58,687 bases of DNA. It comes from Nemertoderma westbladi. Its lineage: Eukaryota; Animalia; Xenacoelomorpha. Positions within the stretch are counted from its first letter, which is position 1. Each line of letters begins with the position of its first letter. The stretch lies in assembly GCA_032718475.1 (NCBI GenBank), contig JAUCBJ010004744.1, forward strand, positions 1-58,687, given 5' to 3'. Under the pieces are notes generated by a model. It searched no databases. It was given only the letters and a program-made list of their open reading frames with translations, and was not told the origin of the DNA. The translations under genes and the position numbers were made by a program. This document shows positions 1,594-57,570 of the stretch, piece by piece.

Positions 1594-4500
1594 ATGACTG
1601 AGTTGATAGAAGATGATCTTGGTATCAGGGAGCGATATACTCTACCTTTACAAGCGTTTGTCGATAGCTTGATACGCGGCGACGCTGGTCCAACTACTAC
1701 GGAGGATGATGGTCGTTATATCGAACCGCCAATGTCCCCGGAGCAACTTACGCGTGAATTGGATTATAGAAAGTTCACCGCTCGCTATACGCATCGTAAT
1801 GGTACGTATATGGACTTCTTAACTACTGGCCATCCTATCGATTTACACGATACGGACGATGTAGACACCGAAAGGGAAATGGTTTTATTTAAATATCATA
1901 CCCAGCGGAGTCGGAACGATAAACCGAGAATAGAACACGAGAATTCTATTCGAAACCGACTCGAAAGAGAAGACGTTGAAGAGCCGGATAAACGCAGCGA
2001 CTTCAACGATTATCTGGAATTCCTGAGAGAGACATATCTCAATATTGCCAGTCAACAAAATCTAGAAACTCGATATCCTCAAGGTATACATCATGATCCT
2101 ATGATAGAACTCAAACGACTCTATTTCACTATGATGTATCTTACCGCCGATCGACCGCTACCTGTCGTCCCAGATAGCTTCGAACAGATGGAGGAATATT
2201 GTAAAACTGGAGAACGATCACCCGCGTTTCCCCTGCAGGACGTGCGTCTTTGGTATTACTGCGACGAATGCCCTAGACCCAATCAGCAAACGGAAAGACA
2301 TAAACATCCGCGGAGACGTTGCGCTAAACACAGTTTTACACGATATACTTATGGGAGTTTCGAGCGAAACCTGTTCGACGTATCACCTACGGTCGCTCGG
2401 CTCAAACGATCCTTGAATAAACCAATGATCAGAGTTCCGGAATACTCGGTCAGACCTCCTCATTCCTCAGTTAGACCTCAGACTCTTGATCCTAATAGTA
2501 TCACGGATCCTCCCGAACTGTACTCACTGTTCAAAGATCTAGTGTTACCCGAACAGTTGATCGGTGGCACTCCGGTAGTGGGCTCACTAGATATTCGCCA
2601 ACCCTACCTAGCCGGATTAGGACGCGGTCATCTAATATCGCCGTTTAACCCGTACAACCGTCCCGGCTTCACCCCGATACAACCCGTTACGGAAGTCGAA
2701 GAGAGCGTCGTACGAAACGCGTTAGACGCTATTCGGCAGAAAATCGGAAAGGGAACTTACGATTGTTTGGAGAAACGTAAATTGCAGCAACAAGTCCAAG
2801 CGGTGAAAGAATTAGCTTTACCCCAGTTCGATAGAGAAATACAAAATCTCGAAGAGGACATCGAACGTGGACGAACCTACTCTTTACAAGAGTTCCTAGA
2901 TGAGCGTTTACAACAACAAGCGGAGGAAAATCAGCTCGAGGAGAGACATATAGAACTAGATGAGAGAGAAGAAGCAGCTTTAGCCCAGCCAGAAGCTCAA
3001 ATCCTTATAACAGATCTCTATTCTAAAACCATTATCCATCCTTCGATGGTTCCTCATTTCGGAGACAAACTCTTCGCCACGGCACAGCCTCAACCGGTTG
3101 ATATCAACCTAAGATCTCGAGATCTTATCGCTGACGCTCCCATGTTGCAACGTCCGCCCATCGAAGCCGCTCGTGTCGATGGTATACTCGTTGAACCTCC
3201 GGACAATAGAGCGGATCTTGTCCGTCGCATGGTACACGATGTTAACATACGCGCTAGACCTTTACCGGACTCGTTTTATGGGATCAAAGATCACCCTTAT
3301 TACGTCAATCTAACACAATATTACATGGTAAAACCGGAAGATCCTACACATAGTCTGAGGTTTCTACCACTAATAAATCCTCTCGATCTTGTCGAACTCG
3401 AACAACTGCAGAAACATCTGGATCAGTTAGTTAAAGTAAACTCATTTCGAAAACCATATAATGTTTCCAGAATAGAGAAAGAAACAATACCTCCGTATAA
3501 TCTTGATGGATTCATCAAAACTCGATTAGTACACTGGAATCTTGACGTGTTATTCGAGGAGGAAAGAATACAACGATATGGAGATGTGGAAACATATACT
3601 ACACAATACTTAAAGTATAGAGATCTACCTAATGCTAGCGAATGCGCTACCTTGTGGCATCCAGTGGGAATGACTCTCGAAAACGCCACTAAAGAGTGGA
3701 ACGAGACTCTTAACGTTATCGAGATGTATGGAGTTGTCACTTACGATAACGAAGGTAGCGTTCCGGTTGGAGAACTGGGAACTACGCGAATGATACACAT
3801 ACGAGGACTCGCTGGTTCTACCCACGTATTTACTCGAGCGTGTTCCGATGTGATTGATTATTCTTTTGAGACTCTTACTGAGACACAAAAGAAACTCCGA
3901 CATGGACAATTCGAACTCGCGCAGCGTTACGTCACCGACACCGAGCGCAAACCGGCCATGGGTATCGATGGATCGATGTTACCCCAGCCCGTGCTCGAGA
4001 TGTTGTTTAACGAAAGAATCCTTAAAATCGGCTCAGCTGTTTATGGAGATCTACAAAACGACTTTCGGAACATGGAGAACATTCCATACCCTTTCGTTGA
4101 TACTCAGCTGATTGCTCCCTGGGCAGAAGGCCGAGGTTTCTTCCGCACTATGTATGCCAATACACCCAGCGGCATTACTAAAGTACAACGAACCTCCATC
4201 GGACATCTTGCCTTTCAAGAATACGGATGGAATTTCAAGGTTGGAAATCCTATCAATTACCAACAAGTATATGGAGATCATTATTCTCGTTTATACTTTG
4301 ATGGACCATTGACCGCACCTGGCGCCATGTATAGCTTTATGAGTGTTCCACTTCGTCCCTCCTTAGCTATATACACGATCTTTGAAAACGCAGCACTTGC
4401 CGGTTGGCTAGCCGATGTGTGCAGTCGTACCATACGCGCCCATCCCTTAATACTTGGAACCAAACTCGCCAAGTTAGATGAACACAATAAATTCATCCGC

Positions 4501-12500: not shown

Positions 12501-15126
12501 GATTGCTTTCATGCCAACTAATATTTCATGTATCAATGTTATTCTCCGATCAGTGAATGATGCAGCTTTCCGACGTACTAATGAAAATAATTTTGCAAAT
12601 CCTAGACTCAATGGGAAGACTAACATTACGAGTAACATACCAAAAATACCAGACCATTCCAGATTGAAATACATTAAAGGGAACACTAGAAATACCAAAA
12701 TAGGTGTTGAAATTAGACTATTCGCCAGAAATGAAAATTGTTCCACTCTTCCAACATCAGAGGACAACAAGTTAGTAACTTGACCTGTTGTAGTATTATT
12801 GATATTCCATGAATTTAATGTCAATATCTTTCTATATATAAGGGTACTGCATCCAACCTTAATTTTCATCCACAATAGGTTAGAATAAAAAGAAGAATTT
12901 ATGTTAGCAAACACTGATAAAAAAGAAGTTATTCCAATTATTAAGCAATCAAATAATGTTTTTTCTATTGAAAAATTGCTATCCATTTCCAAATAGTGTC
13001 CAATAAATCGTTGTAGAAATAATACTCTAACCAGCAGTGAAACTTCATGAATAGTTCTTAACATAGAACAAATGAGGTATTCTTTCCAATGTATTATTAT
13101 CAGTGTTCTCAGAATATTGAATTCTTCTTGTCTTGTTCCTCCGACTTTCTGAAATATATAAAAAATAAGAATGAGACCCCTTACATCACCTATATAATCG
13201 ACATGCTATATTGTAGTTAATGCAATACTGGCTTATTGACAAAATTGAGCAACTACAACTCCCTATCCCCCATGACTTTAGAGAGATGATCAGTATCTTC
13301 AAGGTTAGTGTCCTTTAAGAGGTGTCTCAAGAAAGTCATGGAATGTTCACCACATTCATTCTATCTATGTTTCTGCTAAAGCACCAGATAGTGCAAAGGT
13401 TGGTCCTCATGGCATAAACAATGTGCAGCAAAACGGAAAGGTGACTCCATTCAAGTGTAAGCTTGGGCTAAAGAAACACCTACAATGCATTATTGGTCTG
13501 GTTGGAGATATGTTTATTAAACTTGACATAATGAACCTGGTGTAACATTCTTGTGTATGAGCCATCCTGAGATTTGTTGTCCTCAGCAGTTAGAGCCCAA
13601 AATTTACTTCCATATAGGAGACCAGTTCTACTGCTGCTCTAAATAATCAACCTTGAGATTACATTTTATTCTGTGACTTCCAACCCGTAGATACACCATT
13701 CAATTTTGCCCATGCCTTTACCTTTATATATGCAGAGGTTGTCACCTGACTTTTATGCATACTTTTATGCTTACTTTACCAATTAGCAGAATCCACATAA
13801 GCAAGCAAACTTGATCCTGGCGTTGGAAGTTATGTTCATAATTCAGACATTTGTTGAGCACTGTTTAAGTAAACTGTCATCATGTTGGTCTTCATGAAGT
13901 TAACAAACAACTAACACTAGAAGCAACCAGCTCCAATGAGCTGAAGGGTCGATGAAAATAAACAAAACTGGTATGTATGCAGTCGGTCAAACGTCTAGAA
14001 ATGAATCTGAAGTTTTGTAAAAAAAATGAGACTGTCTATCAGTCAGTACATGTTAGTTTCAAACTTTTGATATAAACCGAAATAAGTCAGTCAATCATTG
14101 AAGAAATTAAATCAAACTTTGTAATGTATGCAGTACGACAAAAGGTTGGAAATAATCTGAAGCTTGGTCAAAAATGAGACAGTCTGTCAGTCGGTACCTG
14201 TAGTTTCAGACTTTAAAAAAAATCTAAAATAAGGCATCCAATCACAGATGAACTTAAACCAAACTTGTTATGTGTGCGGCTGCGTGCTGCGTGAAGGCCC
14301 CATGAACGTGTCACCAATAATGTGTGTATTTCTGAGTACATATTGTGTTTATAAAGCATTAAATTATTTATCAACGGGCAAAATCATGCCATTGTTTTAG
14401 AGCTTCTCAAAGGGGGACTTCCAACAGCTGATGTGATCAGCTGGAGATCTGCCTTAACCTTGGTGTTTTGTTTCCATTCACTCTCAGGCAGCAGATTTCT
14501 AGATTGCCTGCAACCATCATCGGCAGTGTTGATGGCATCAACCTGCTGATAGCTCCAGTATATGATATCTAAAATTAATATCCTTTTCCTGCAATAATTA
14601 GTTACTAACGACTCTGCAAAAACTATCTTACATACACTTACTGTAGCTTATAATGGCTATCAAAATTAGAAAATACTCAAGCAACACGTGTTCTAGAAGT
14701 TTATTGTTAGTGATTATTTTGCAGCATTCAACGCGATAGGCTACAACAGTTACGAGGATATCACTATAACGCAGAGAAGTTACATAATGTAGAAATATAT
14801 ACTATTTAATTTTAAAGCATAAATTTCGACCAACATGATGTTGGATGTAGTGTCCTACTCCCAGAAACGACTTTTACAACCTCGCCTCAGAGTCATTACT
14901 TTGATGGAGCGACTGCATGTAAATAGAACACAATAACACCCACCTTGCTGTTTAGAGTTTTTAGTAAAATGTAGCTCTGGTAATCAGCTGTTAGACTTTC
15001 AGGAATTGGTCTAATGAAGTCATCACTAGAGATTCTCCTGTGCGACTGGATCCTTAGAAAAGGCAAAATGTATGAATAGAACAAAGGGAAGAAAGGGTTA
15101 ATTTTCAAATGTGCAATCATAATCAT
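9533..15126 (-). CDS. ABCC/MRP4-like ABC transporter (L0-TMD1-NBD1-TMD2-NBD2, no TMD0); at least 2 exons; one frameshift near 10550
   Basis: NBD1 GPVGSGKS, LSGGQ, YLMDD; NBD2 GRTGAGKS, LSVGE, VLIDEA; TMD2 FFEQNPAGGILNRFSKD. Upstream exon ~15126-14944 encodes L0-like NPFFPLFYSYILPFLRIQSHRRISSDD; phase-0 GT-AG intron 14943-13149 joins it in frame to exon 13148-9533. Confidence 0.9.
13965..14275. repeat. Degenerate ~150-bp tandem duplication in the ABCC intron
   Basis: TATGCAGT..AATCTGAAG..AAAATGAGAC..TCAGTC..TAGTTTCA occurs twice. Confidence 0.6.
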
Positions 15127-16457: not shown

Positions 16458-19175
16458 GTATGTAGGTCTCCTGTATGATAATTATACAGTTTGATGTGGT
16501 TCTGTATTCGTATCAGTTGGTACATTATGTACGATGTATGTAGGCCTACTGTATGATAATTATACAGTTTGATGTAGATCTGTATTCGTATCAGTAGGTA
16601 CAGTATGTACTATGTATGTAGGCCTCCTGGATGATAATTATACAGTTCGATGTGAATCTGTATTCGTATCAGTTGGTACAGTATGTACTATGTATGTAGG
16701 CCTATTGTATGCTAATTATACAGTTTGATGTGGATCTGTATTCGTATCAGTTGGTACAATATGTACTATGTATGTAGGCCTCCTGTATGATAATTATACA
16801 GTTTGATGTAGATCTGTATTCTATTCTGTGTATGTACAGTACTATGTATGTAGGCTTTCTATGATAATTATACAGTTTGATGTGGATCTGTATTCGTATC
16901 AGTTGATACAGTATGTACTATGTTTGTAGGCCTCCTGTATGATAATTATGCAGTTTGATGTGGATCTGTATTCGTATCAGTTGATACAGTATGTACTATG
17001 TTTGTAGGCCTCCTGTATGATAATTATGCAGTTTGATGTGGATCTGTATTCGTATCAGTTGATACAGTATGTACTATGTTTGTAGGCCTCCTGTATGATA
17101 ATTATGCAGTTTGATGTGGATCTGTATTCGTATCAGTTGATACAGTATGTACTATGTTTGTAGGCCTCCTGTATGATAATTATGCAGTTTGATGTAGATC
17201 CGTATTCGTATCAGTTGATACAGTATGTACTATGTATGTAGGCCTCCTGTATGAAAATTATGCAGTTTGATGTAGATCTGTATTCGTATCAGTTGGTACA
17301 GTATGTACTATGTATGTAGGCCTCCTATGATAATTATACAGTTTGATGTGGATCTGTATTCGTATCAGTTGGTATAGTATGTACTATGTATGTAAGCCTT
17401 CTGTACGATAATTATACAGTTTGATGTAGATCTGTATTCGTATCAGTTGGTACAGTATGTACTATGAATGTAGGCCTACTGTATGATAATTATACAGTTT
17501 GATGTGGATCTGTATTCATATCAGTTGGTACAGTATGTACTATGTATGTAGGCCTCCTGTATGATAATTATACAGTTTGATGTGGTTCTGTATTCGTATC
17601 AGTTGGTACAGTATGTACTATGTATGTAGGCCTCCTGTATGATAATTATACAGTTTGATGTGGTTCTGTATTCGTATCAGTTGGTACAGTATGTACTATG
17701 TATGTAGGCCTCCTGTATGATAATTATACAGTTTGATGTGGTTCTGTATTTGTATCAGTATGTACGAAGTATGTAGGCCTCCTGTATGATAATTATAAAG
17801 TATGATGTGGATCTGTATTCGTATCAGTAGGTACAGTATGTACTGTGTATGTAGGCCTACTGTATGATAATTATACAGTTTGATGTGGTTCTGTATTTTG
17901 TATCAGTTGGTACAGTATGTACTATGTATGTAGGCCTACTGTATGATAATTATACAGTTTGATGTGGATCTGTATTCGTATCAGTTGGTACAGTATGTAC
18001 TATGTATGTAGGCCTACTGTATGATAATTATACAGTTTGATGTGGATCTGTATTCGTATCAGTTGGTACAGTATGTACTATGTATGTAGGCCTACTGTAT
18101 GATAATTATACAGTTTGATGTGGATCTGTATTCGTATCAGTTGGTACAGTATGTACTATGTATGTAGGCCTACTGTATTATAATTATGCAGTTTGATGTG
18201 GATCTGTATTTGTATCAGTATGTACGAAGTATGTAGGCCTCCTGTATGATAATTATAAAGTTTGATGTGGATCTGTATTCGTATCAGTAGGTACAGTATG
18301 TACTGTGTATGTAGGCCTACTGTATGATAATTATACAGTTTGATGTGGTTCTGTATTTTGTATCAGTTGGTACAGTATGTACTATGTATGTAGGCCTACT
18401 GTATGATAATTATACAGTTTGATGTGGATCTGTATTCGTATCAGTTGGTACAGTATGTACTATGTATGTAAGCCTTCTGTACGATAATTATACAGTTTGA
18501 TGTGGATCTGTATTCGTATCAGTTGGTACAGTATGTACTATGTATGTAGGCCTACTGTATGATAATTATACAGTTTGATGTGGATCTGTATTCGTATCAG
18601 TTGGTACAGTATGTACTATGTATGTAGGCCTACTGTATTATAATTATGCAGTTTGATGTGGATCTGTATACGAATCAGTATGTACTGTACGATGTATGTA
18701 GGCATCCTGTATGATAATTATACAGTTTGATGTGGATCTGTATTCGTATCAGTTGGTAAAGTATGTACTATGTATGTAGGCCTATGCCTCCTGTATGATA
18801 ATTATACAGTTTGATGTGGATCTGTATTCGTATCAGTTGGTACAGTATGTACTATGTATGTATGCCTCCTGTATGATAATTATACAGTTTGATGTGGATC
18901 TGTATTCGTATCAGTTGGTACAGTATGTACTATGTATGTATGCCTCCTGTATGATAATTATGCAGTTTGATGTGGATCTGTATTCGTATCAGTTGGTACA
19001 GTATGTACTATGTATGTATGCCTCCTGTATGATAATTATACAGTTTGATGTGGATCTGTATTCGTATCAGTTGGTACAGTATGTACTATGTATGTAGGCC
19101 TCCTGTATGATAATTATACAGTTTGATGTGGATCTGTATTCGTATCAGTAGCAGACAGTATGTACCATGTATGTA
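16458..19175. repeat. 78-bp satellite array, about 34-35 units
   Basis: Consensus GTATGTAGGCCTCCTGTATGATAATTATACAGTTTGATGTGGATCTGTATTCGTATCAGTTGGTACAGTATGTACTAT. Confidence 0.97.
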
Positions 19176-22381: not shown

Positions 22382-22687
22382 GCCCACAAATATCATGTAG
22401 ATAACGATAGAACGCTTCTTCATCCCCATTGAAGTCAATGAAGCGATTAACGAGCTGATAAGCGTATTTAATTCGCTTTGTTCCCAGCCGCTTGGAGAAT
22501 GCTTCACCAATCTCGGGAACCTCTATGACCTTTGTTCCCAGCCGCTTGGAGAATGCTTCACCAATCTCGGGAACCTCTATGACCTTTGTTCCCAGCCGCT
22601 TGGAGAATGCTTCACCAATCTCGGGAACCTCTATGACCTTTGTTCCCAGCCGCTTGGAGAATGCTTCACCAATCTCTTGAACCTCTA
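22382..22687 (-). pseudogene. BAF-like gene copy 1, truncated, with ~4 x 54-bp HhH repeats
   Basis: Same sequence as the copies at 34 kb and 41 kb; ends just after HDICG. Confidence 0.75.
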
Positions 22688-29564: not shown

Positions 29565-30469
29565 TTATTGTTGAATGTAGTCATGGAAGGAGTTCAAGCC
29601 CTTTAGATTAGTGAGCAGCATACCAATCCAAAATCGTTCTGATTTTCTTAGTTTCTTTATTGTTTCTACGCAGTTATCCCTTCTTGGTAATTGATCGATC
29701 AAAATAAATTTCAAGTTTTTGGAGGATTTGTTGTGTTTTTCGATGAGATGTACGCCGATATTGCAACTTTTCACACCTTTTTTTATATGAGATTTATAAT
29801 TTCCAAGCCTCTTCTTGAAATTGATTGTTGAGCCAACACCCTGTAAATTGCATTCTATGCAGATAGCTAAATATACTACATTTTCCGAGTAACAGTTTAA
29901 TCGTTTGTTTATTTTAAAAGTCTTGCCTGTAGCTACACATTTGAAATGGTTGGTGTCAATTAAGTAATTTTCACAACAGTCACACTTTTTAGCGCTACAA
30001 TTGTAACAACCAGGATTATCAATGCATGATAATTGTTTATATGGATTGGATGGTGCTAGAAGTTCTTTTAGGTTTGGGTTTCTTTTATATGCAACAATTA
30101 TTTCGTTTTGAGGTAGTATTTTCCTTGCCATTTCGTTTGACTCTAATATACCATAATGTTTATTGATAAGTCTTTTAAAGTTTGGAGCCATTGGGTTATA
30201 CGTTGTTACTAAAACTGTTGGATTTTTAATACTTTTGTTTTTTCCTTTATAATTTCTTGCTTCCAATCTTTGCATGTTCCTAACTTCTTCAAAGACTGTA
30301 TTTACATGATCTGCATTATGTCCACACTTAATTAGGTGGTTCTTGTACACGTTACCTTGAGTCACATAGTCTTTATCTTTTGTGTTAATTCTTTTCAACC
30401 TTAAGGCCACTCCTTTAGGAATTCCGTTGATTTGGCATTTAGGGTGGGCAGATTTACTATTTAAAGTTA
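29565..30469 (-). mobile_element. 5'-truncated Penelope-like element: thumb, Cys-rich linker and GIY-YIG endonuclease
   Basis: SAHP..IPKGVALRL, CYNCSAKKCDCC, NVVYLAIC..CNLQGVGST..RLGNYKS, E.FWI..L.T..GLN; homology to the longer copy ends at ~30469. Confidence 0.9.
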
Positions 30470-32095
30470 GATTACAAGTTTTTTGGAAGATACTATGAAG
30501 TTGGACATACATAATATGAGAGATTGTCGAAAAATATCAAAAGTAATCCTCTTGGGGTATTATTTTACCCCACGTTACCGGGGGAGGGTTAAAAGATAAT
30601 TTCGACCAGTTCTCCAAGCCAAAATAATATATTTTCCTTCTCAGCTAATTTGTTGGAGCCATTTTCGGATAGGAAAGTGACTCAAGGGTCATAAAATCCA
30701 CAAGGTTGACTTTTGGGCAGCAACTAAGAAATTTAAATAACACTTAATTCGAAGATCTGCCAAAATGTTGTTATCAGATTTTGATAAACGATACAAAGCG
30801 AAAGAAAGATAAACTACCAACCTACTACAGGCAGCAGGTAGTTGGGAAAAGAGGAAGGACTGTGCCAGCACTAATTACTAAAGGTATGATTCGTACCATC
30901 AGAATTCGTACCATCTTTATGAGTTCCTTTTGCTCAGCTCGAACTGAGCAATCCATTAGTCCGCTTATAACCTTTGCCGCTTTAGTGGCTCCTGCCTTGT
31001 TAACCGCTGCGACCTGCGTCTTTGCAGTGTCCTTCCCGAGCACGCGCCGCCCCCCCTTCTTTCCGACCGAGTTATTGTTTAGTCTCTTAAGATTGACTTT
31101 CCCTCTATGGGAGCTCAGGGCTTTAAGTTTATAAACAAGACCGAGATTCTTCTGATCTTGTTGATACTAAATAATAATGTTGCATTGTAGATGCAAGCCT
31201 TGCGTGATTTAATACTGAAATGGTTTGTAAGTGGTTTATTCAGTATGTAATAAAATAATTAATGTTTTCTTTTTTTTTATTCTTTAATTATTTTGATATG
31301 TATTTATTAGGGTGTTATATATTTTTTCAATTTGTTATGATATTGCCACTCCTCATATCCCGAATTTTTTAATTTGGCGCCCTTCACAAATCAGTGTCTT
31401 ATGGCACTTGCCTCCACCCCCCTCTGTCAATATTCAACCACGACGCAGTCAGGGCGAGCCTTAGCGCACAATTATAATCAGTAATAGTCGGTAAAAAATT
31501 TAATGTCGGTCTGTAATGAAAAATTCATTCGTAAATAAGTTGATTCAGATAAGTCAGAAGATTAGTCAGTATGTGATGAATACAATACTCCAGGCTACTG
31601 ATGATAAGAGAGATGCCCAAAAGGCTCTTCTTATATCTAAAGAATGGGGTTAATGCCACTCATTGTTCGGTGAAGCAAAGATGTATGTATGCCTCACATG
31701 TCCTTCAAAAAATGGAGGATGATATTGAGTTGAGTTTACATTGTGATTGATACTACTGACCAGCATTTCTTCCATAAGGATTCTTAACTAAAACCACATA
31801 TGGTAGACAATCCTGAATCTGAAATTAAAAGGGCGAATCTTTATATCTATGTAAAGAAGGGATGCTATAACATAACTGAGATCCAGCGTAATAAATTTCT
31901 TGCAAATTTTGCTGATCAAAGTAAAGTGAAGTATGCCAAGCATGTTGTAGTATTCCTCTGTAGAGAAAATCTTAAGGAGGATAATGGAGAATGCTTTATT
32001 CTAATTAAAAAAATATTTTTTTTCGAACATATCCAAGAGTTACAATGCTATTAAAAAAAACTAGTAAAAAAACTATTGTTTTTTTTCAGTTTATA

Positions 32096-33899: not shown

Positions 33900-34606
33900 T
33901 TATCTTCCTTCGGGTTTCCATTCATTTGGGTGTGTACATCGAAAGTTACACAGACAGTTAACCTTTGTGAGCTCTCCTGTTGTTTCACTACTGACCCCGA
34001 CTTCCAGACTATCACTTTCACGTTTCTTTGTTGTCCCGATGTCTCTATGTTCCTTCACCCATTGCAATATTACATGATACCGAGTTCGATGCATTTGGGG
34101 CCCACAAATATCATGTAGATAACGATAGAACCCTTCTTCATCCCCATTGAAGTCAATGAAGCGATTAACGAGCTGATAAGCATATTTAATTCGCTTTGTT
34201 CCCAGCCGCTTGGAGAATGCTTCACCAATCTCGGGAACCTCTATGACCTTTGTTCCCAGCCGCTTGGAGAATGCTTCACCAATCTCGGGAACCTCTATGA
34301 CCTTTGTACCCAGCCGCTTGGAGAATGCTTCACCAATCTCGGGAACCTCTATGACCTTTGTTCCCAGCCGCTTGGAGAATGCTTCACCAATCTCGGGAAC
34401 CTCTATGACCTTTGTTCCCAGCCGCTTGGAGAATGCTTCACCAATCTCGGGAACCTCTATGACCTTTGTTCCCAGCCGCTTGGAGAATGCTTCACCAATC
34501 TCGGGAACCTCTATGACCTTTGTTCCCAGCCACTTGGAGAATGCTTCACCAATCTCGGGAACCTCTATGACCTTTGTTTCCAGCTGCTTGGAGAATGCTT
34601 CACCAA
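33900..34606 (-). pseudogene. BAF-like gene copy 2: open frame through ~7.6 HhH repeats, the BAF core and a C-terminal tail; 5' end replaced by satellite
   Basis: KVIEVPEIGEAFSKRLGTKRIKYAYQLVNRFIDFNGDEEGFYRYLHDICG..LQW aligns without gaps to human BAF I26-G68. Confidence 0.8.
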
Positions 34607-34960: not shown

Positions 34961-35896
34961 ATGTTAAAGAATATTAAAACCAAATGTATGCCATATACTA
35001 TGTAGGCCTACCGGTATTTCTTGTTAAATTTTTTTTAAAATAATTTTTTTTAAACATTTTAGCCTTATTGATATTAGGCCAACATTTAGTAGTTTTGAGA
35101 CACTAACAACACAATTTAGGCCTAGCTGTTTTCAATGATACCAAATTGTGAATTTGTAGAAATGCCCAAACACAATTTGTCAGCTGCACAATAGGCTCTC
35201 CTACCAGTATACTGTCCTACTGGACAGTATACTGGTATATATGGGTACCAAGCTTGCACTGAAAGACGCACACACCAAGTAATTAAATTCATACCAATAA
35301 ATTGATGTAGGCCTACAATAGGCCTACTGTAATGAATAGTGCATTATTTTTTTATAATATTATTATTTCAGTATTTATTAATGTAAGAACCGGTACAGTA
35401 CTGGTAGCCTATATAATTAACTCACAGGCCTACTTAATACATAGGTATTATGTAGGCCTATCTGCCTATACCAACATACAGACAATAATAATAGGCCTAG
35501 TTGAAATAAATGTATAAATTTCCAGCACCAGTATTACAGCACAGCAGCAGGTATAGTGAAATGAAAAAAATACATTTAATATTGAAAAAGAAACAGGAGC
35601 AAAGCCATCAAAATTTTTAATTTGAACAATGCCTAAATGAAAAATTTAACAATGCAAAATGGAAAAGAAATGCAAGCATACCAGTACCAGGTAACAATTT
35701 TTATTGCAAAATATTTGGGTCTGTCTAAACACCAAAATCACAACAAATCACACCAAATCACCAGATAGGGAGGGGGGGGGGGGGGGGGGGGGGCTGGACG
35801 CAATAAAAATCCATCCATCTCTAGACGAAATTGGATGCAAATAACAGATGATTACTTTCAAAAATAAAACTGTAACCTGTTATATTGTGTTTAGTT

Positions 35897-36650
35897 CGCA
35901 ATGTCAGTTCTTGTACTATGGGTTACGGTCTCGTCATCTGTGACTTCACGCCTAACTCTGCCCTCAGACTGAATAAGTTCTGACTTGTCAGTTGCTGAGA
36001 AGGTCATATGCTTATCCACGATATAGTCAGATGGCACTTGGACCAAGCACTAATCCCAATCAGACTCAGCAATCTCGTCGTCAAAGGTGTAGGCACATGA
36101 TCCAACATACTGATCAGCCAGAGGTAGTGTCGCAGCGTAATCCACTGTTCTTAAAGAAGACCTTGAGATCTTTTCCTTTACTCTTCTTGATCTCATGATG
36201 GATCTCTCCTGCTCCGATCGCGGCAAGAGTTTCGCAAGTGATAATGAAATCAGGTTCTCTAATCACTGCGACCCCAACCGCCATGAAGGCAAGAAATCCA
36301 ATAAGAAAGAGAGCGGAACGCCTTCTGGCTACCAACATACCTGTGATGGAATCCCTGATCAAACGCAAGCCTGCATTGGGCAAGCTAACAATAAACTGCA
36401 AGATCCATGTCACGTAGTTGATGCTTTTTCCTTTCTTCTCTTTCTTCTTTTTATTTTTGGAATCAATCCCCTTGCCGGGGGGCTTGTTTCCAAAGGCGCC
36501 CTTTGAAATAGACAATTTTGGCGCTGGAACAGGAATACCTGTTCCTTTAAATGCGCCCTTTCTGGGCGCTGGAACAGGAATACCTGTTCCTTTCTTCTTT
36601 TGTTGTTCTTTTGCACTCGGCATCATCCACGTTCGTTGTCCAAATTCCAT
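35897..36650 (-). pseudogene. Putative flavivirus-like endogenous viral element (capsid-anchor-prM), disrupted
   Basis: Lys-rich N-terminus, then RRR/S, a hydrophobic signal-like stretch and a Cys-containing region; after a frameshift near 36130 and one stop, an RVRR furin-type site at ~35949-35960. Confidence 0.5.
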
Positions 36651-39056
36651 CCGTCCATTTGTTGTGTATGCGTATCTCCTTCTGGCTCTAGGAATTGCTT
36701 TTTACATATAGTGTCACTTAAATTTTGGCTACCAATTAAAGTCATCCCAAAATTGATGAAAATATGGATAGTTCTGTACTCGAATCTGGACCAAACTGAA
36801 TCGAACTTGATTGAAAGAGTGGCGAACTGGACTGAACTGGACCGCCAAATGAATGATAATCTAAAAACAACCATCCATGCAAACAGGTGAAAATTAATAT
36901 TGAATTTCATTTGGTCTTTCATACATTATAAATTTAGTTGCTTATAAGATGTTGCTAAATTAAGATTATTTACTTCACATAAAACACTGCTGTACTGCTT
37001 TTACGAGTAGGCCTACCGGTAGCAGGTATCTGGGTTTATAGATTGCAGTATTTTGCGTACTGGTAGTTGTGTTCAATGCAGCAATGAAAGCAGTAATGTT
37101 TGATTATATTTTCTACACTGGGAACACGGGGTCAGTCGGATCATAATGCGGGCCGCTGCCGAGTTTCTTACTCTGAGCACGGATTGTGGCAGACTTACGT
37201 TGACGTCGACGAGGCATGCGATGCGATCTGGGTTTAGCGGCGGACTGGATCGCCTTGGGGGAGGGCTGAATGGCTGCGTCTGACAGACATGTATCGCACC
37301 AGATAACAGGATTACATTCTCTGCGGCGCGAAAGTGGGAGTCCAATTCCAATTCATTATCGAATTGGGTTGGAAGCTGCGGCCTGCAGGACCGGGAATTC
37401 TACGGGTACAAGGATAATCCATAGTGGTCGGCAATTACGAACAGATAAACCCCCTTTTTTTTTATTCTTTAATTATTTTGATATGTATTTATTAGGGTTT
37501 TATATATTTTTTCAATTTGTTATGATATTGCCACTCCTCATAACCCGAATTTTTTAATTTGGCGCCCTTCACAAATCAGTGTCTTGTGGCACTTGCCTCC
37601 ACCCCCCCTCCCCCCCCCCCCACTAGGATCGGCATGCTGCATTGCAGCTGCATTTTTAAGAATACTGTGCCGGCTGTGCCCCCCCCCCCCCCCAGGTACG
37701 GCTCTGAGAACATACAGTACGGTAGGAATGTCAATATTCAGCCACGACGCAGTCAGGGCGAGCCTTAGCGCACAATTATAATCAGTAATAGTCGGTAAAT
37801 AATTTAATGTCGGTCTGTAATGAAAAATTCATTCGTAAATAAGTTGATTCAGATAAGTCAGAAGATTAGTCAGTATGTGATGAATACAATACTCCAGGCT
37901 ACTGATGATTCAGGCTACTGATGAGGCTCTTCTTATATCTAAAGAATGGGGTTAATGCCACTCACTGTTCGGTGAAGCAAAGATGTATGTATGCCTCACA
38001 CGTCCTTCAAAAAATGGAGGATGATATTGAGTTGAGTTTACATTATGATACTACTGACCAGCATTTCTTCCATAAGGATTCTTAACTAAAACCACATATG
38101 GTAGACAATCCTGAATCTGAAATTAAAAGGGCGAACCGAACCAGTTAGTTACCAGATTAGTTGGCTCACTATTACTCTCTGTCTCTCATATCCAACGAAT
38201 TGTATGATATGCATTCCAGTCTGGGCCAACGATCTGGATCCCACCTGCTTATCTTTTCCTTCCCCATTTTGCCCAAAGTTAGGCTCACCAGCACATAAAT
38301 TACACAAAAAACACAAACAGCAATGAACCCCTGCCCCCCCCCCCCCCCCCCCAATTAACCAGAAACAGGGTCCATGACTTCTTATATAATATAGTAAGGT
38401 CGTTTCCTCCCTGTAGGTGGGCCAGAAGGTACTAGCACTGGTTCCTCCAGGGCTGGGACAAGACAATATCTTCTTCATTGGGAGCTAAATTCTCCCTGGC
38501 TGAATAAAACGATTCAGACGACGTTTTGGTTGACATACTTGATTTATTTGAACAATCAAAATATTTAAAATATAAGTTCTGATTTGCTATTGGGCTATCC
38601 ATTCGTGCTTTGAATGCTCAAGGTTTTTGTTCCCAGACTTGGTCCTGGATTCTGTTTAACTGGGAGTTAGCTGAGATTGCACTTCGGAAATTAGACTCTA
38701 TTATGCAATTGTGTGGACCAATCATGGCCCTGCAACAAAGAAAGTAATTGAGACTTATAATAAGGGTGAAGGAAATTGTTCATTCATGCCTAGCCTGGAA
38801 ACAAAAATGTGCAAAGGGGAGATTCTGAAGATAGGGCGGCCTAACTCGACTAGGCCCGAGGGCTGGTTGCATATGTTTGAGTTAATCTTGTGTCCGTCAT
38901 CTGGTGTCATGATGACACGCAAGCGCTAACTTACAATTTGTCACCAGTATAGGACCTATCTTATATATATACACCCTAGGGCTACTTGGTTATCTTTAAG
39001 GGGAATGTATCATTCCAGGTTCAAAAGATTGAATTTATTTTTTAATTGATTCTAAA

Positions 39057-41027: not shown

Positions 41028-41889
41028 TTATCTTCCTTCGGGTTTCCATTCATTTGGGTGAGTACATCGAAAGTTACACAGACAGTTAACCTTTGTGAGC
41101 TCTCCTGTTGTTTCACTACTGACCCCGACTTCCAGACTATCACTTTCACGTTTCTTTGTTGTCCCGATGTCTCTATGTTCCTTCACCCATTGCAATATTA
41201 CATGATACCGAGTTCGATGCATTTGGGGCCCACAAAATATCATGTAGATAACGATAGAACCCTTCTTCATCCCCATTGAAGTCAATGAAGCGATTAACGA
41301 GCTGATAAGCGTATTTAATTCGCTTTGTTCCCAGCCGCTTGGAGAATGCTTCACCAATCTCGGGAACCTCTATGACCTTTGTTCCCAGCCGCTTGGAGAA
41401 TGCTTCACCAATCTCGGGAACCTCTATGACCTTTGTTCCCAGCCGCTTGGAGAATGCTTCACCAATCTCGGGAACCTCTATGACCTTTGTTCCCAGCCGC
41501 TTGGAGAATGCTTCACCAATCTTGGGAACCTCTATGACCTTTGTTCCCAGCCACTTGGAGAATGCTTCACCAATCTCGGGAACCTCTATGACCTTTGTTC
41601 CCAGCCGCTTGGAGAATGCTTCACCAATCTCGGGAACCTCTATGACCTTTGTTCCCAGCCGCTTGGAGAATGCTTCACCAATCTCGGGAACCTCTATGAC
41701 CTTTGTTCCCAGCCGCTTGGAGAATGCTTCACCAATCTCGGGAACCTCTATGACCTTTGTTCCCAGCCGCTTGGAGAATGCTTCACCAATCTCGGGAACC
41801 TCTATGACCTTTGTTCCCAGCCGCTTGGAGAATGCTTCACCAATCTCGGGAACCTCTATGACCTTTGATGATTTAACTTTCTTGTACAT
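41028..41889 (-). CDS. BAF-like gene copy 3: ATG start, 10 x 18-aa HhH repeats and the BAF core; +1 frameshift at 41234-41237
   Basis: Array 41324-41863 is 10 x 54 bp; AAAA here versus AAA in copies 1 and 2 breaks HDICG; the corrected frame ends at 41028. Confidence 0.8.
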
Positions 41890-45304: not shown

Positions 45305-46011
45305 TATGTAGGCATACCGGTATTTCTTGTTAAATTTTTTTTTAAATAATTTTTTTTTTACATTTTAGCCTTATTGATATTAGGCCAACATTTAGTAGTT
45401 TTGAGACACTAACAACACAATTTAGGCCTAGCTGTTTTCAATGATACTAAATTGTGAATTTGTAGAAATGCCCAAACACAATTTGTCAGCTGCACAATAG
45501 GCTCTCCTACCAGTATACTGTCCTACTGGACAGTATACTGGTATATATGGGTACCAAGCTTGCACTGAAAGACGCACACACCAAGTAATTAAATTCATAC
45601 CAATAAATTGATGTAGGCCTACAATAGGCCTACTGTAATGAATAGTGCATTATTTTTTTATAATATTATTATTTCAGTATTTATTAATGTAAGAACCGGT
45701 ACAGTACTGGTAGCCTATATAATTAACTCACATGCCTACTTAATACATAGATATTATGTAGGCCTATCTGCCTATACCAACATACAGACAACAATAATAG
45801 GCCTAGTTGAAATAAATGTATAAATTTCCAGCACCAGTATTACAGCACAGCAGCAGGTATAGTGAAATGAAAAAAATACATTTAATATTGAAAAAGAAAC
45901 AGGAGCATAGCCATCAAAATTTTTAATTTGAACAATGCCTAAATGAAAAATTTAACAATGCAAAATGGAAAAGAAATGCAAGCATACCAGTACCAGGTAA
46001 CAATTTTTTTG

Positions 46012-46572
46012 CAAAATATTTGCGTCTGTCTAAACACCAAAATCACAACAAATCACCAGATAGGGAGGGGGGGGGGGGGGGGGGGGACTGGACGCAATAA
46101 AAATTCATCCATCTCTAGAGGAAATTGGATGCAAATAACAGATGATTACTCTCAAAAATAAAACTGTAACCTGTTATATTGTGTTTAGTTTATTTTTTTG
46201 GTTAAAATTACGTGCCACTGTAACCTGCTCCTTTACCTAAATTGAGAATTTAACATTGAGGCGGGATATTAATTAACCAAGGCTGGTGGGTTTTGCGTCC
46301 CCATCCAGTTTCTCCCCTGTCTCCAAATCACAAACCAAATCACACTAAATCACAAACCAAATCACAAAAAATAATCCTAAAACCAAATCACACCAAACCA
46401 AATCAAATGATACCAAATCATAAAATAAATTTAAAATTAAAGGAGCAGGTTACAGTGGTAGCCAGAAGGAACCAAAAGAATAAACGATTTGAAAAAAATA
46501 AAAATAATAAATTTTGAAGGTGATTTGGTAAATTTTGTGTGATTTGGGTATTTAGACAGACCGAAATATTTT
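46012..46572. repeat. Inverted pair of probable transposon ends (Kolobok-like TTAA/AGG terminus)
   Basis: CCACTGTAACCTGCTCCTTTA (~46215) and TAAAGGAGCAGGTTACAGTGG (~46438) are perfect inverses; 46012-46058 is also inverted at 46519-46572. Confidence 0.55.
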
Positions 46573-49149: not shown

Positions 49150-52100
49150 TTGAAATGTGTCACTTAAAATCAAACATTTTAAATTATATGCTCTCACCCC
49201 CTAAAAATGTCATATCTAACATAAAAAGGTACTGGTTAAAATTTCAGCTTAACTAATACATATTTAGAGGTAGTCCAAGCACCTCAAATAATTTGCAGCA
49301 AAGCGACACATGGCGCGACCGTATTATATCTTTGATTATGGTGAATACCAACTTCTTGTAATTGTATTGCACTGTTATTAGGCTTATTCGATCCGCAATG
49401 GTCGAATTAGGGGGGGTAGAGACCTTCACAACAACTTTAGAGCTTATAGTTCTTGAGATATTACACAAAAGACATATGTCGCTCAGCATAGCATTGTCAC
49501 GTCTATATGATATAGGCATCTCACCAAAAATAATACATACAATGATCTCACAAAATCAAGAATAGGCTCATTCAAACCACAATGGTTGATTTAGTGGGTG
49601 TAGAAACCGCAAAAACAAACAACATCCAGCTTAGTTCTTGAAATAATATAGAATTTGTAAACTCAACAATGGTATGTCACTTCTCTGTACAAGATAGTAC
49701 TGTCATTGACTGCTGTCTTGATATTACACTCCCATTCGAATCGAATTTGTTGTATAAGAATGTACAATAATGTGTAAATTCACAAGAGAAGGTTGGGAAG
49801 ATTAGGCTATCCAGATTGTGTAGTTGAATATTACTTATTATATAAATAACTGCTTTAAAGATGTACCAGTAACTTTCTTTTACCTTTATCTGTACCGTAC
49901 CTTGCTCATTTACCTCAAATAAACAATAGGCCTAAGTCAATATTATTAATATTATTTTGAAGACTAATGATTTATGGCATCTACAAGATCGCAGAATGAA
50001 GTTTTTCTCTTGGGTGGGACCATAAATGAATTTACTGTGTCAAAGCTCCCATCTAATCGACAAGTTCTTGGGCGGTTCTTGCAGTTACACCTGAATGAAA
50101 AAAAGACAATACGAGATTCATCTTCACAAACTTCACGAGAGATAATACCAATTTGGGTTAGTCGGGCACGGATTCCAATTAGGGATATTCAACACTGCAT
50201 CACAAAGATTGAATCAATTTTCCAAACGTGGAAAGACCTTAAATGCCTTCGTAATAGAAGTACCAACAGCCAAAAGAAAAAAGAGGCAGATTTTGTTGAT
50301 ATATTGGATGATTTATTCGATATAGCACATTCTAATGCACTATCAATGATAAAAAATCAGGCAGATAAAGACTTTCTGCTGGCACAACGGGAGAAGGGAC
50401 GTCGTGGGACTATGGGGCCAGTTGATGCTATTCTCGCCAGAAAAGATAACCGCCGTATCTTGAAAAGAAAAAGAGAAGAATTGCTGCAATCCAGATCTGA
50501 AGAGCAACAAGTTTGTATGACTGCAGTAGTTTCTTTGGATTCTTCAAGCTGCAGCAGTGCTGATGAAGATCATTCTGCTGTTGCTGGTACTTCCCAGACC
50601 AAAACACCTGTAAAGAAACATAGAGGAAGAACAAATGTAGTTACACCTTCACTTGCTGCTGCGTTGGATCGAACCAGGATGTCTGATCGCAGTGCTACAT
50701 TTGTTCTTACTGAGGCAGCCCTAAGTCTTGGCCACAATCCTGAAGGTTTAAATATAAACCGCATGTCCATCAACCGCCATCGTCAAAAAGCCAGAACTAG
50801 TTTTGTCGAACAGTATATGGCTTCATTTCAGGCTAATGTTCCCCTTACAGTTCACTGGGATGGAAAATTACTCTTAGATCTCACTGGAACTGATCATGTT
50901 GATCGTTTGCCTGTCCTAATTTCTGGGGAAGGAGTCAGCCAACTTCTTGGTGTTCCTAAGTTAGCAGTAGGAACTGGTGAATCACAAGCAACAGCTGTTG
51001 TTGCAGCATTGGAAGAGTGGGGTGTTTCAGAAAATGTGGTTGCCCTTTGCTTTGATACCACATCCTGTAACACTGGGCACCGCACTGGATCATGCATCTT
51101 AATTGAGCAAAAGTTGGGTCGGGACCTAATGCACCTTGCTTGTCGACACCACATAATGGAACTCATTCTTGCAGCTGCATTTTCATCTGCAATGGGAAGC
51201 AGCATAGGCCCTGATGTTGCAATATATAAGCGCTTCAAATCCCAGTGGAGTTTTATTAATCAAGCTGATTTCCAACCTGGTATAAATGATGAAACAATCC
51301 AAACATCAATCACATCTCAACAGATTAATAACCTCATTGCATTTGCTAATGAACAGCTTTCCATTCACCACCCACGTGATGATTATAAGGAGGTGTTAGA
51401 ACTCTCAGTCTTGTTTCTTGGAGGAGTTCCAAAACGTGGCATCCACTTCCAGGCACCAGGTGCCATGCACCATGCGAGGTGGATGTTGAAGGCAATTTAT
51501 AGCCTTAAGATCTGGTTGTTTCGTCACCAATTCAAGCTTACAGTGAAGGAGGAGAGAGGACTGCGAGATCTATGCATTTTTATTGTCCTGCTTTATATTC
51601 CTGCATGGATGAAATCGCCAGGAGCCATTGAGGCACCCTACAATGACTTCCGGTTATTGCAGAGTCTAGTTGCATATAACAAGATAAATAAGGAGATTTC
51701 AAAGGTAACCAGCGAAAAACTAAATAATCATCTGTGGTATCTCTCTGAGGTGTTAGTTGGTTTTGCCTTCTTTGATGAAGAAATCCCAACCCCTACAAAA
51801 ATACTGATGGTGGAAGCATTAGATGGTATGGATAGCGAAGATCATAATACAGTAAAGAAACACCCAAAGCTGGACTTGCAGTTCATTGCTATCAAAGGTA
51901 TAGTTGTTACTCCACGTACTAAGTTGTTCTTCACTAATCTTCGATTACCAGTAGAATTTTTATCAACAAACCCAAGTGAATGGAAGAAACAACAAAGCTA
52001 CAATGTGGCTCGGGAGAAGGTTCGTACAATCAAAGTTGTGAATGACTATGCTGAAAGAGCAGTTGACCTTATCCAGTCATACAACTGTCTACTGACAAAA

Positions 52101-52568
52101 GATGAAGAGCAGTTCCAGTTCCTCCTTCAAGTGGTCACTGAACATCGCGCTAGATTTCCAAAATGTACTAAAAGAGACTTGATTACATAAATTCATCTTA
52201 TGATATCTATTATGTGTTAACTTTTTGTTATTATTCCGAGTTTGTTTTTTGTGTTAGGCCTATGTTTTTCATGTTATTATTATTTAGATCAATTTACAAT
52301 AGCAATTGATAAAAGTGGAATCATTTATGTTTGTATATAAACCTCTTTGTTATAGTATGAACAAGTTATCTATATTGAGATCATACTTATATTTTGTTCG
52401 CATCGATCAATTTTTGAAAACTTTAAGGGTCTTGGACTACCACTAAACATTGTTTATTTTAGAACAAACTTTGCCAGAATCATTTTTACAAATGACATTC
52501 TAAATTTGGAGGGTGAGACCATAAATTATCTCTTTTTTCAAATTTCGCTCACTTTAAGGGACACCCTG
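49150..52568 (+). mobile_element. hAT-superfamily (hATm-like) DNA transposon
   Basis: TSD ATGACCAC/ATGACCAT (49142-49149, 52569-52576) with a single copy at the empty site 27399-27406; right end TTAAGGGACACCCTG; subterminal inverted motifs; altered left terminus. Confidence 0.9.
49974..52190 (+). CDS. 738-aa DDE transposase (hATm-like), intact
   Basis: VHWDGK, FDTTSCNTG, ACRHH (CxxH), HHARW and VVNDYAER motifs. Confidence 0.92.
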   Translation: MASTRSQNEVFLLGGTINEFTVSKLPSNRQVLGRFLQLHLNEKKTIRDSSSQTSREIIPIWVSRARIPIRDIQHCITKIESIFQTWKDLKCLRNRSTNSQKKKEADFVDILDDLFDIAHSNALSMIKNQADKDFLLAQREKGRRGTMGPVDAILARKDNRRILKRKREELLQSRSEEQQVCMTAVVSLDSSSCSSADEDHSAVAGTSQTKTPVKKHRGRTNVVTPSLAAALDRTRMSDRSATFVLTEAALSLGHNPEGLNINRMSINRHRQKARTSFVEQYMASFQANVPLTVHWDGKLLLDLTGTDHVDRLPVLISGEGVSQLLGVPKLAVGTGESQATAVVAALEEWGVSENVVALCFDTTSCNTGHRTGSCILIEQKLGRDLMHLACRHHIMELILAAAFSSAMGSSIGPDVAIYKRFKSQWSFINQADFQPGINDETIQTSITSQQINNLIAFANEQLSIHHPRDDYKEVLELSVLFLGGVPKRGIHFQAPGAMHHARWMLKAIYSLKIWLFRHQFKLTVKEERGLRDLCIFIVLLYIPAWMKSPGAIEAPYNDFRLLQSLVAYNKINKEISKVTSEKLNNHLWYLSEVLVGFAFFDEEIPTPTKILMVEALDGMDSEDHNTVKKHPKLDLQFIAIKGIVVTPRTKLFFTNLRLPVEFLSTNPSEWKKQQSYNVAREKVRTIKVVNDYAERAVDLIQSYNCLLTKDEEQFQFLLQVVTEHRARFPKCTKRDLIT

Positions 52569-54478: not shown

Positions 54479-57400
54479 TTATTGTTGAATGTAGTCATGG
54501 AAGGAGTTCAAGCCCTTTAGATTAGTGAGCAGCATACCAATCCAAAATCGTTCTGATTTTCTTAGTTTCTTTATTGTTTCTACGCAGTTATCCCTTCTTG
54601 GTAATTGATCGATCAAAATAAATTTCAAGTTTTTGGAGGATTTGTTGTGTTTTTCGATGAAATGTACGCCGATATTGCAACTTTTCACACCTTTTTTTAT
54701 ATGAGATTTATAATTTCCAAGCCTCTTCTTGAAATTGATTGTTGAGCCAACACCCTGTAAATTGCATTCTATGCAGATAGCTAAATATACTACATTTTCC
54801 GAGTAACAGTTTAATCATTTGTTTATTTTAAAAGTCTTGCCTGTAGCTACACATTTGAAATGGTTGGTTTCAATTAAGTAATTTTCACAACAGTCACACT
54901 TTTTAGCGCTACAATTGTAACAACCAGGATTATCAATGCATGATAATTGTTTATATGGATTGGATGGTGCTAGAAGTTCTTTTAGGTTTGGGTTTCTTTT
55001 ATATGCAACAATTATTTCGTTTTGAGGTAGTATTTTCCTTGCCATTTCGTTTGACTCTAATATACGATAATGTTTATTGATAAGTCTTCTAAAGTTTGGA
55101 GCCATTGGGTTATACGTTGTTACTAAAACTGTTGGATTTTTAATACTTTTGTTTTTTCCTTTATAATTTCTTGCTTCCAATCTTTGCATGTTCCTAACTT
55201 CTTCAAAGACTGTATTTACACGATCTGCATTATGTCCACACTTAATTAGGTGGTGGGGCGAGACACGTAGTCGGCGAGCCTTGGCATACGGTTCATATAG
55301 GGTAAATGGGGCATGTCCGTCTGTCTGTCTGTCCGTCTGTCTGTCTGTCCGTCCGTCTGTCTGGTAAATGTTTGAACGCGAATTTCTCGGCATCGCTGGT
55401 TCGGAATTGAACCAAACTTAGTAGGCAAGTAGTAGAGAGAAAGTTTAGAAAGTTTGTAAAGTTTGGTGAAAAATCATGCAGCCTGACGTCAGCTACGACA
55501 GATTTTGTGGTTTTTAGAAAATGTTAAATTTCTCGGGAAGGCCTCATTTTCCTGAGCTGAAATTTTGGTGGCCTGTAGAGAATCATGAAGTCTATCTTTT
55601 ACGAAATTGAAAAGTTAAGACATTTAATTGGGGATCCGCTAGAGACTCAGAAGTAATGACATAGGCCTACCGGTACGGTACTGCTGTACAGTGCTGCACT
55701 GGTAAGTACAAAATTGCAGAATAACAATTTGACACCACCTAGCGGATTAACATATGATTGTATATCGAATGAATACATTTATAGCATGGGATATGGGGTT
55801 CAAACTAGACATGCCCCATTTGCTCTATATGAACCGTATGCCAAGGCTTGCCGACTACGTGCTGCGCGAAGTCCCCACGAACGTGTTCTTGTACACGTTA
55901 CCTTGAGTCACATAGTCTTTATCTTTTGTGTTAATTCTTTTCAACCTTAAGGCCACTCCTTTAGGAATTCCGTTGATTTGGCATTTAGGGTGGGCAGATT
56001 CACTCCTTTAGGAATTCCGTTGATTTGGCATTTAGGGTGGGCAGATTTACTATTTAAATATATATGTGAATCTGTAGGTTTACTATACACTGATGTTGTT
56101 AACTGATTATTTTCAATTGTTATGTTTAGATCTAAAAAGTGTAACGATTTAGCACCTATATCCAGTGTAAACTTCTGGATCCAATGTATTTAATAGCTTA
56201 AAGAATTCGAATAGACACCTTTTTGAACCACGCCATATGGAGAATATATCGTCTCTGTATCTAAACCAACATCTTAATTCAGGGTATCTTTTTTTCTTGT
56301 TAATTACTTTTATATCAATATCTCCTGCCACTATGTCAGCGTAAGAACAATAATTTTTGGGTCCCATTGCAGTGCCGTCTGTTTGTATCCAAAACTCATT
56401 TTGATACTGTGATACGTTGTTTTTTAGGCAAATTTCCAATGCTTCAATAATGCAGTCAGAAGGTACATCAAACAAGTGTATATTTTCTTTTAATTTATTA
56501 GAAACTATATTGATCCCGTTTTTGTTGTCAATAGAAGGAAACATATTAATAATATCAAAACTAATGAATATATCATTATCTGCAATTTCATGTAAATTTA
56601 ATTTGTCTATTATTTCCAGCATGTGTGAGGTATCTTTTACCCGATGTGGTAATGTGTTAGCTATCTTTTTGCAGTATGTTTCTACAAATTGAGAAAGATT
56701 TTCTGTTGCGCTACCACAACCTGATGTTATTACACGCGCAGGTGCTTGTTCTTTGTGTAGTTTTATTCTTGGATAATTTGTGCCCGGTGTAGGTTTAGAG
56801 TTTAATAAAATATAATTTACCCATTTATTGCTTAGTCCAAGGTCTTTCCATTTTTCAGTCCAGTTTGTAATTTGGTTTAAAATTGTAAAACTCGGGTCTT
56901 TTTCAACTTTCTTAAATGATCCACAATCCATTTGCTCTTTTAGTTTTTTGTTGTCTGTTTCCTTATCAATGAATACAAAAGAATTTCCTTTGTCTTGTAA
57001 TCTCATAATATATCCCTTATCATTTATGTTTGTTTTTCTAAATTTATTTAATGCTTCTCTTTCTTGAGGATCTATGTTGTCTCTTACTTTCTTTAACTTA
57101 GTATCTTTAAAAATATCTTTTTCAATACTGTCAAGAAATACTTCGATTGCTGGAATATTGCATTTTGGTGGATTTCGTGTTGATGCTATGTGTGTTGGAA
57201 ATAATGAATTGTTAACTTTGTCTGCTGATTCTATATTAATTACTTCCCTATTGTCTTTATAAAAAAACGCTTTCCATAGCACTTTTCTTTTAAAATTTTG
57301 CCAATTTCTTTGTATATCATCCCAATTGACACTCATTGGCTGTGGTACAAATGAAGGCCCCAAACTACATAATTTAATAAGTCCGGGATCAATTTTTTGT

Positions 57401-57570
57401 TCTGTTAAATTAAATACTTTTACGTTACTATTTGTTGTTACATTAACATTTCCAATGCTTTCATTTTCCTGTTCTAGAACATTTAAGGATTTCTCCAAAT
57501 TTCCTAGACTTTCTTTATTATTTTTTGACATAATATCATTTACTAATGATCTCATTTTATTTCTAAACAC
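54479..57570 (-). mobile_element. Penelope-like retroelement (RT plus C-terminal GIY-YIG, Neptune-like Cys linker), inactivated
   Basis: RT motifs DKG, KLHK..PARVI, SFDIINMFPSI, GTAMG, RYRDDIF; frameshift near 56175; 47-bp duplication at ~55954-56047; insertion at 55255-55886; premature stop at 54815. Confidence 0.93.
55255..55886. mobile_element. Non-autonomous insertion with long imperfect inverted ends and a GTCY microsatellite (Helentron/DINE-like)
   Basis: Absent from the copy at ~30338-30342; ACGTAGTCGGCGAGCCTTGGCATACGGTTCATATAG is inverted at ~55818-55860; (GTCT/GTCC)n at 55315-55362; no clear TSD. Confidence 0.8.

Follow-up and report, generated by a model that had tools for sequence, protein, structure and literature searches.

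A putative endogenous viral element resembling the 5′ end of a divergent flavi-like virus genome in Nemertoderma westbladi

On contig JAUCBJ010004744.1 of the Nemertoderma westbladi assembly GCA_032718475.1, a copy of a MITE-like repeat is interrupted by a short segment that reads like the beginning of a flavivirus polyprotein, raising the question whether this locus stems from a virus and, if so, from which kind. From the 58,687 nucleotides analyzed (positions 1 to 58,687, hereafter the window), we deduce that the minus-strand segment 35897..36724 probably stems from a divergent flavi-like RNA virus, whose genomic 5′ end (capsid, anchor/signal, pr, furin site and the start of M) was integrated into the germline as DNA and is now broken, a reading to which we assign a probability of roughly 70%. 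The order of capsid, dibasic site, signal, Cys domain and furin site as well as the integrated and broken state were confirmed. The element is not a classical orthoflavivirus, nor does it represent a new kind of system.

Structure and genomic setting of the element

On the minus strand, a stop-to-stop frame of 195 codons (36701–36114) is followed by an 80-codon continuation in the next frame (Table 1). An ATG lies immediately ahead of the stop bounding the first frame, and this stop may represent a third break in the coding sequence. The basic capsid-like region, the duplicated KGTGIPVPAP (identical 29-nt copies 45 nt apart), the RRR/S motif (36326–36315) and the 19-residue hydrophobic stretch were all found on this strand where the original prediction had placed them. 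The hydrophobic moment of the capsid-like region reaches up to 1.86 in residues 91–121, and the hydrophobic stretch shows a mean Kyte-Doolittle value of 2.57 over 19 residues, a hydropathy suggestive of a signal-peptide role. Directly behind the Cys codon at 36134, the coding sequence shifts into the next frame, where two further Cys, the DW pair, a stop, RVRR and a short tail with acidic and polar residues follow. GSC, DWD-stop-C and GRVRR/EV of the original prediction are present in this second frame, while its continuous reading "C..LPLADQY" runs across the frame shift just after the Cys codon. A Cys-containing domain, as postulated for pr, does lie between signal and furin site, albeit with four Cys instead of the six of classical pr. 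Moreover, the element is depleted in TpA, with an observed/expected ratio of 0.58 versus a window mean of 0.93 and an equally low value in only 1 of 136 window tiles; this depletion resembles the ratios of 0.48–0.77 found in seven viral genomes.

Table 1. Coordinates of the putative element, its parts and its flanks within the window.
Feature	Position	Strand	Basis or remark
Putative endogenous viral element in full, corresponding to the 5′ end of a flavi-like polyprotein gene and cut off early in M	35897..36724	-	GC 0.45, TpA-poor
Basic, Pro/Gly-rich capsid-like region, 128 residues, with amphipathic segments and RRR at its end	36318..36701	-	31 K/R, 5 D/E
In-frame 45-nt tandem duplication, KGTGIPVPAP twice	36520..36593	-	two 29-nt copies, 100% identical
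RRR/S dibasic site, then 19-residue hydrophobic anchor/signal with small residues at its end	36261..36326	-	hydropathy
pr-like domain, about 105 codons	35948..36263	-	Cys codons 36236, 36134, 36097, 36049; DW 36061–36056
Break 1, frame shift inside this interval	36110..36133	-	reading frames
Break 2, in-frame stop codon	36050..36052	-	reading frames
Furin-type site RVRR	35948..35959	-	sequence motif
Polar M-like start, ending before any membrane helix	35897..35947	-	translation
Left flank, left third of MITE-like high-copy host element	35708..35896	.	inverted repeats; very high contig depth
Right flank, multi-copy host repeat common to the element versions	36725..37119	.	depth in thousands versus about 60–180 on the element

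Between 20000 and 55300, the window is pieced together from tiles that adjoin one another and recur within it at 95–99% identity, mostly in the same orientation. The element is one of these tiles; the patchwork region as such looks like a shuffled repeat cluster. The 898-nt left neighbour at 34999–35896 recurs at 45305–46190 (97% identity), there continuing into the rest of the MITE-like element, and this similarity stops exactly at the left edge of the viral segment, as had been proposed from the duplicate. A whole copy of the MITE-like element with inverted ends is present at 46013–46572, and its usual continuation is visible as loose contig ends at 35896, where the segment interrupts the copy. 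Of the limits originally given as 35897..36712, the left one stands, whereas the right one has to be moved to about 36724, since low-copy contigs branch there into the high-copy repeat. A search for a target-site duplication at the two ends was negative, the longest common word being 6 nt. The window is of animal type, bearing an ABCC4-type transporter gene, an RT fragment and a GIY-YIG ORF. Virus-like coding sequence between host flanks, truncation and coding decay are found together in host DNA, as is characteristic of non-retroviral endogenous viral elements (EVEs).

The element is present in three DNA-type sequencing runs from two studies (94–96% of sampled words) and absent from three of the six listed runs, among which no RNA-type run carries it. 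Four runs were compared with the locus in detail. Contigs run 30 nt from the element into each flank, one nt below the 31-nt bridging rule applied. Depth on 36186–36754 is about 2–3 times that on 35867–36215, and the runs X1, X2 and X3 each contain a version departing from the element at 36186. In X3, a further version with a different flank at 35894 was observed, as well as a variant contig differing at 4 of 110 positions, and X1 and X3 share a form whose lysine run lacks 9 nt. The KGTGIPVPAP duplication is also found in contigs from X1, X2 and X3. In run X5, representing a third sample under the same species label, the element is uncovered; as the neighbouring low-copy flanks are likewise without coverage, we do not claim a presence/absence polymorphism.

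Database searches and the link to flavi-like viruses

The element including its capsid-like region did not give any match in Pfam, NCBIfam, PDB or Rfam. Among 1.84 billion protein representatives, only two matches were obtained, both rejected as repeat artefacts (a polyprotein-sized, 3,264-aa bacterial-type DUF5649 repeat protein and a Chlamydomonas repeat protein), so that no true homologue was found in this collection, and neither was one in longer proteins, IMG/VR and metagenome contigs. Pieces of E, NS3 or NS5 were not detected elsewhere in the 58,687-nt window (87 queries, best E 0.24). Classical flavivirus profiles missed the element, with the best frameshift-aware match falling in the wrong part of it, and pairwise frameshift-aware scans against 80 polyproteins resulted in noise-level scores. 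In the family, structure and representative searches, a credible match to a retroelement env or a cellular protein, the kind of best match that the original prediction itself held against a viral origin, was not obtained either.

For calibrating these results, natural flavivirus genomes were gathered by NS5 motifs and NS5 alignment, of which 80 whole polyproteins were used; the orthoflavivirus comparison set comprises 63 classical and 15 insect-specific genomes. The metagenomic genomes L104 (IMGVR_UViG_3300036163_000972) and L114 show strong NS5 and NS3 matches but none to capsid, propeptide or M. For L125 (Ga0157535_103795), which carries NS5/NS3 Pfam matches as L104 does, the structural ORF of 1,396 residues lacks any Pfam match. 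Although L104 and L125 are 48% identical in the NS5 core, comparing their regions at the prM position results in an E value of 2.2. Accordingly, a blank search is to be expected for a divergent prM, given that these three genomes likewise lack matches there and that L104 and L125 hardly recognize each other. Genuine divergent members (L104, L114 and several insect-specific viruses) likewise receive low scores, or none, from classical profiles and pairwise scans. With regard to spacing, the element has about 105 codons and 4 Cys between signal end and furin site, compared to 68–107 residues and 4–6 Cys in the 71 polyproteins, out of 80, where a site could be located. In pr of 24 classical sequences, six Cys are invariant, against four in the element, which also lacks DxDCxC and Pfam matches to capsid, propeptide and M.

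By eye, the L104 domain between signal and membrane helices resembles the element, whose two frames match it at E values of 0.03 and 0.2. L125 was obtained on NS5 similarity alone and then showed the same Cys/DW pattern. When running a joint L104 and L125 profile against DNA with frame shifts allowed, the element scored 23.2 bits with an alignment ending at 36035 in the pr region, a value that neither any of the 138 window tiles nor any of 234 viral non-structural decoys reached, while a single one of 150 codon shuffles and 1 of 78 true classical 5′ ends did. Under four penalty settings, the score of the element was matched by 0, 9, 0 and 7 of the 234 decoys and by 1, 13, 1 and 11 of the 78 classical 5′ ends, respectively; when breaks are penalized more heavily or frame shifts are disallowed, it falls to 18.3–18.8 bits, which 7–9 of the 234 decoys reach. 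With L104 alone, the element scored 20.0 bits, a value attained by 3 of 138 tiles, while L125 alone (14.0 bits, 51 of 138 tiles as high), L114 alone and L135 alone (18.0 bits at the wrong place) did not produce a signal. The pattern CD…DWxxC, taken from the identities between L104 and L125, occurs a single time on both strands of the window, at 36134, at an expectation of 0.03 per window. Its span in the element is within one base of that in both viruses, and a one-base difference is what the frame shift predicts; the third Cys of the element is two residues off the L104/L125 spacing. By hhalign, the same L104/L125 segment is placed on the Cys-rich core of classical pr, "GYMCDD…DIDCWC" (P 0.026, probability 1.9%). 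Fold prediction for the corresponding domain of the relative L125 by itself resulted in an all-beta model of insufficient quality for use (pLDDT 44) with uninformative structure searches, and a second model was set aside as a mixed alignment had misplaced L125. As the likeness to L104 was first noticed by eye, these tests are partly post hoc. Overall, the sequence link between the element and the prM-position domain of L104/L125 appears real, modest and dependent on penalties, that is, weak but specific. The predicted identity as an endogenous flavi-like capsid-prM element is thus supported in part, by layout, decay and this modest link, while significant matches in standard searches are missing.

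In an NS5 tree of 23 rows (7 of 28 loci tried were dropped for lacking a usable core), L104, L125, L126 and Candiflavili virus group together at 100/100. Candiflavili virus originates from the triclad Bdelloura candida and has been assigned to a proposed "Flavilivirus" (PMC9241645), and fluviflavili virus represents lineage Ii, described as "platyhelminth and environmental" (PMC11760431, 10.1101/2025.01.17.632993); we take the L104/L125/Candiflavili clade to be probably the same as lineage Ii. Judging from sequence resemblance, the nearest relatives of the element might belong to this clade of flatworm Candiflavili virus, a tentative placement for which we consider the odds slightly below even. 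Like the element, L104 and L125 possess a post-signal domain in which an early Cys, L-x-C-D, a third Cys and DWxxC follow one another with equal overall spacing, and a basic cleavage site lies about 105 residues downstream of the signal. Ahead of the signal, the element has its 128-residue basic capsid-like region and RRR/S, whereas in L104 an in-frame stop is located 14 codons upstream of the first Met, and L125 shows about 30 non-basic residues after its first Met. Identity between the element and L104 and L125, whose prM regions represent the clade in this comparison, is far below BLAST significance. Both contigs (L124/L104 1–420 and L125 1–420) are near-complete at 9.7 and 11.8 kb, respectively, and encode NS3/NS5 and a fusion-loop-like motif, with no basic capsid before the first signal; the L104/L125 clade is possibly capsid-less or differently organized.

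Alternative origins and comparison with known elements

Compared to orthoflavivirus C-prM, for which the motif rules were used as given in PMC10770923, the element shares the basic capsid, RR/S, anchor-signal, Cys domain, R-X-R/K-R and polar M start at a spacing within range. It deviates in having four instead of six Cys, no DxDCxC, no score with classical profiles and a longer disordered capsid N-terminus. As this layout and a low TpA are generic for enveloped RNA viruses encoding a capsid, a signal and a furin-cleaved glycoprotein, an endogenous fragment of another such virus (toga-like, or a flavivirid outside clade I) has to be considered, all the more since the link to L104/L125 amounts to only about 23 bits. 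However, no match to a capsid protease or another viral family was found, just 128 residues precede the signal, and, among the flavivirus sequences compared, CD…DWxxC specifically points to the domain at the prM position. Hence, we regard this origin as unlikely.

A decayed piece of a host gene for a type II membrane protein, retrocopied into the repeat patchwork, would also fit the topology, i.e., a basic cytosolic N-terminus, one helix, a Cys-bearing luminal domain and a furin site. Cellular coding DNA is typically low in TpA as well, and a nearly intronless ABCC4-like host gene lies in the same window. On the other hand, a cellular homologue was not found in the 1.84 billion representatives, Pfam or PDB, and repeats flank every version seen, making such a host gene quite improbable as the source. 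Env proteins possess a signal and a furin site, too, and the element is multi-copy and located among transposon debris (RT fragment, GIY-YIG ORF), as might be expected for a retroelement env or third-ORF fragment. Nevertheless, RVRR is followed by acidic and polar residues and not by a fusion peptide, LTR, gag or pol do not adjoin the element, depth points to only 2–3 times the single version, and no env family was matched, so that this possibility is very doubtful. Finally, non-coding low-complexity DNA displaying common motifs by chance might be considered, as every motif is short and standard searches are blank, but this is highly unlikely: a 195-codon frame with an 80-codon continuation, five features in the right order and spacing, a TpA ratio shared by 1 of 136 tiles and the single CD…DWxxC match are hardly compatible with it.

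Among known endogenous elements, the flavivirid-derived EVEs compiled by Bamford et al. (PMC9752770), amounting to 374 loci from 36 out of 1075 species, are described as fragmentary, often multi-copy and rearranged DNA copies among repeats, thus resembling the proposed flavi-like element. Table 2 of that study does not contain a flatworm-clade group, and the element, consisting of the structural 5′ end only, would be invisible to similarity screens. CFAV-EVE1 of Aedes (PMC7522710) is likewise a non-retroviral flavivirus EVE able to template small RNAs, a role which might apply to the element by analogy. In Aedes, piRNA production and an antiviral effect have been demonstrated, as reported in PMC7522710, whereas for the element a small-RNA template function is only possible and no cognate virus is known.

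Proposed history, significance and neighbouring features

Non-retroviral EVEs arise through reverse transcription by a host retroelement and recombination into repeats. Under the flavi-like reading, the reverse transcriptase of a host retroelement would have copied the viral RNA, and the cDNA would have been joined into repeats by template switching or recombination, a route suggested by the lack of a target-site duplication. The right-hand junction is apparently common to all versions, which fits a single integration with subsequent duplication and truncation, in which the insert would have been copied along with the right-hand repeat and cut at differing points. In the virus, RRR/S would have been the target of the viral protease and RVRR that of furin, signal peptidase would have acted behind the hydrophobic stretch, and pr would have shielded the fusion loop of E. 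Due to the frame shift and stop, whole prM cannot be produced from this copy in the host. Most likely, the element is now an inert fossil; possibly, by analogy with other EVEs, it serves as a small-RNA template. Beyond 20 kb, 6 of 7 ATG-initiated ORFs of at least 190 residues, some of which are duplicates, lie on the minus strand as the element does, and this shared orientation points weakly to a small-RNA role.

If the flavi-like origin holds true, the element records a germline infection by an unsampled, deep-branching virus and ties to a host a clade that has so far been recorded mainly in environmental contigs. In addition, CD…DWxxC would then tie the prM-position domain of this clade to classical pr and could be used for screening other genomes. 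Flavivirid EVEs are uncommon, having been recorded in 36 of 1075 animal genomes (PMC9752770). A report of an EVE from the L104/L125/Candiflavili clade, or of the element itself, was not found in the literature, the incomplete coverage of which makes this weak evidence of novelty. A more far-reaching scenario, which we consider rather unlikely, would make the element the first fossil that the flatworm/environmental flavi-like clade has left in a germline, and the sole trace of an unsampled member of this clade with the full flavivirus-style capsid and protease site that sequenced relatives appear to lack; the patchwork locus might then act as a piRNA cluster, and EVEs consisting of capsid-prM only would be invisible to current screens.

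Several other features were observed in the window and among the viruses retrieved. An uninterrupted ORF of 1,430 residues at 1594–5886 (plus strand, GC about 0.45) shows Cys/His knuckle-like motifs near residues 1120–1180, matched Pfam families only weakly (zf-CCHC_3, E 0.19), had no identical counterpart in the protein collection, and is possibly an uncharacterized mobile element or viral gene. At 9533–13205 (minus strand), two long frames that overlap and are nearly free of introns encode an ABCC4/MRP4-like transporter, representing either a retrocopy or the gene of an intron-poor host. Arrays of a 54-nt unit with 98–99% identity and long open frames on both strands are located at 22476–22687, 34194–34606 and 41323–41867, and a satellite with a 78-nt unit, repeated about 35 times, at 16458–19175; it displays higher-order structure and is strongly skewed between the strands. 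The minus strand also carries two copies of a GIY-YIG ORF, the first with a Pfam match, and an upstream ORF that looks RT-like (29565–30512, 54815–55393 and 56149–57555); these ORFs may be Penelope-like, with the RT part not matching Pfam. An intact ORF of 738 residues at 49974–52190 (plus strand), not assignable to a Pfam or NCBIfam family, resembles a DNA transposase. Searching for further relatives of the L104/L125 structural region did not reveal any beyond their own clusters. Among the viruses, L140/L114 (IMGVR_UViG_3300021859_000083) is a metagenomic polyprotein of 3,301 residues with E, NS1, NS3 and NS5 matches that branches apart from classical and insect-specific flaviviruses.
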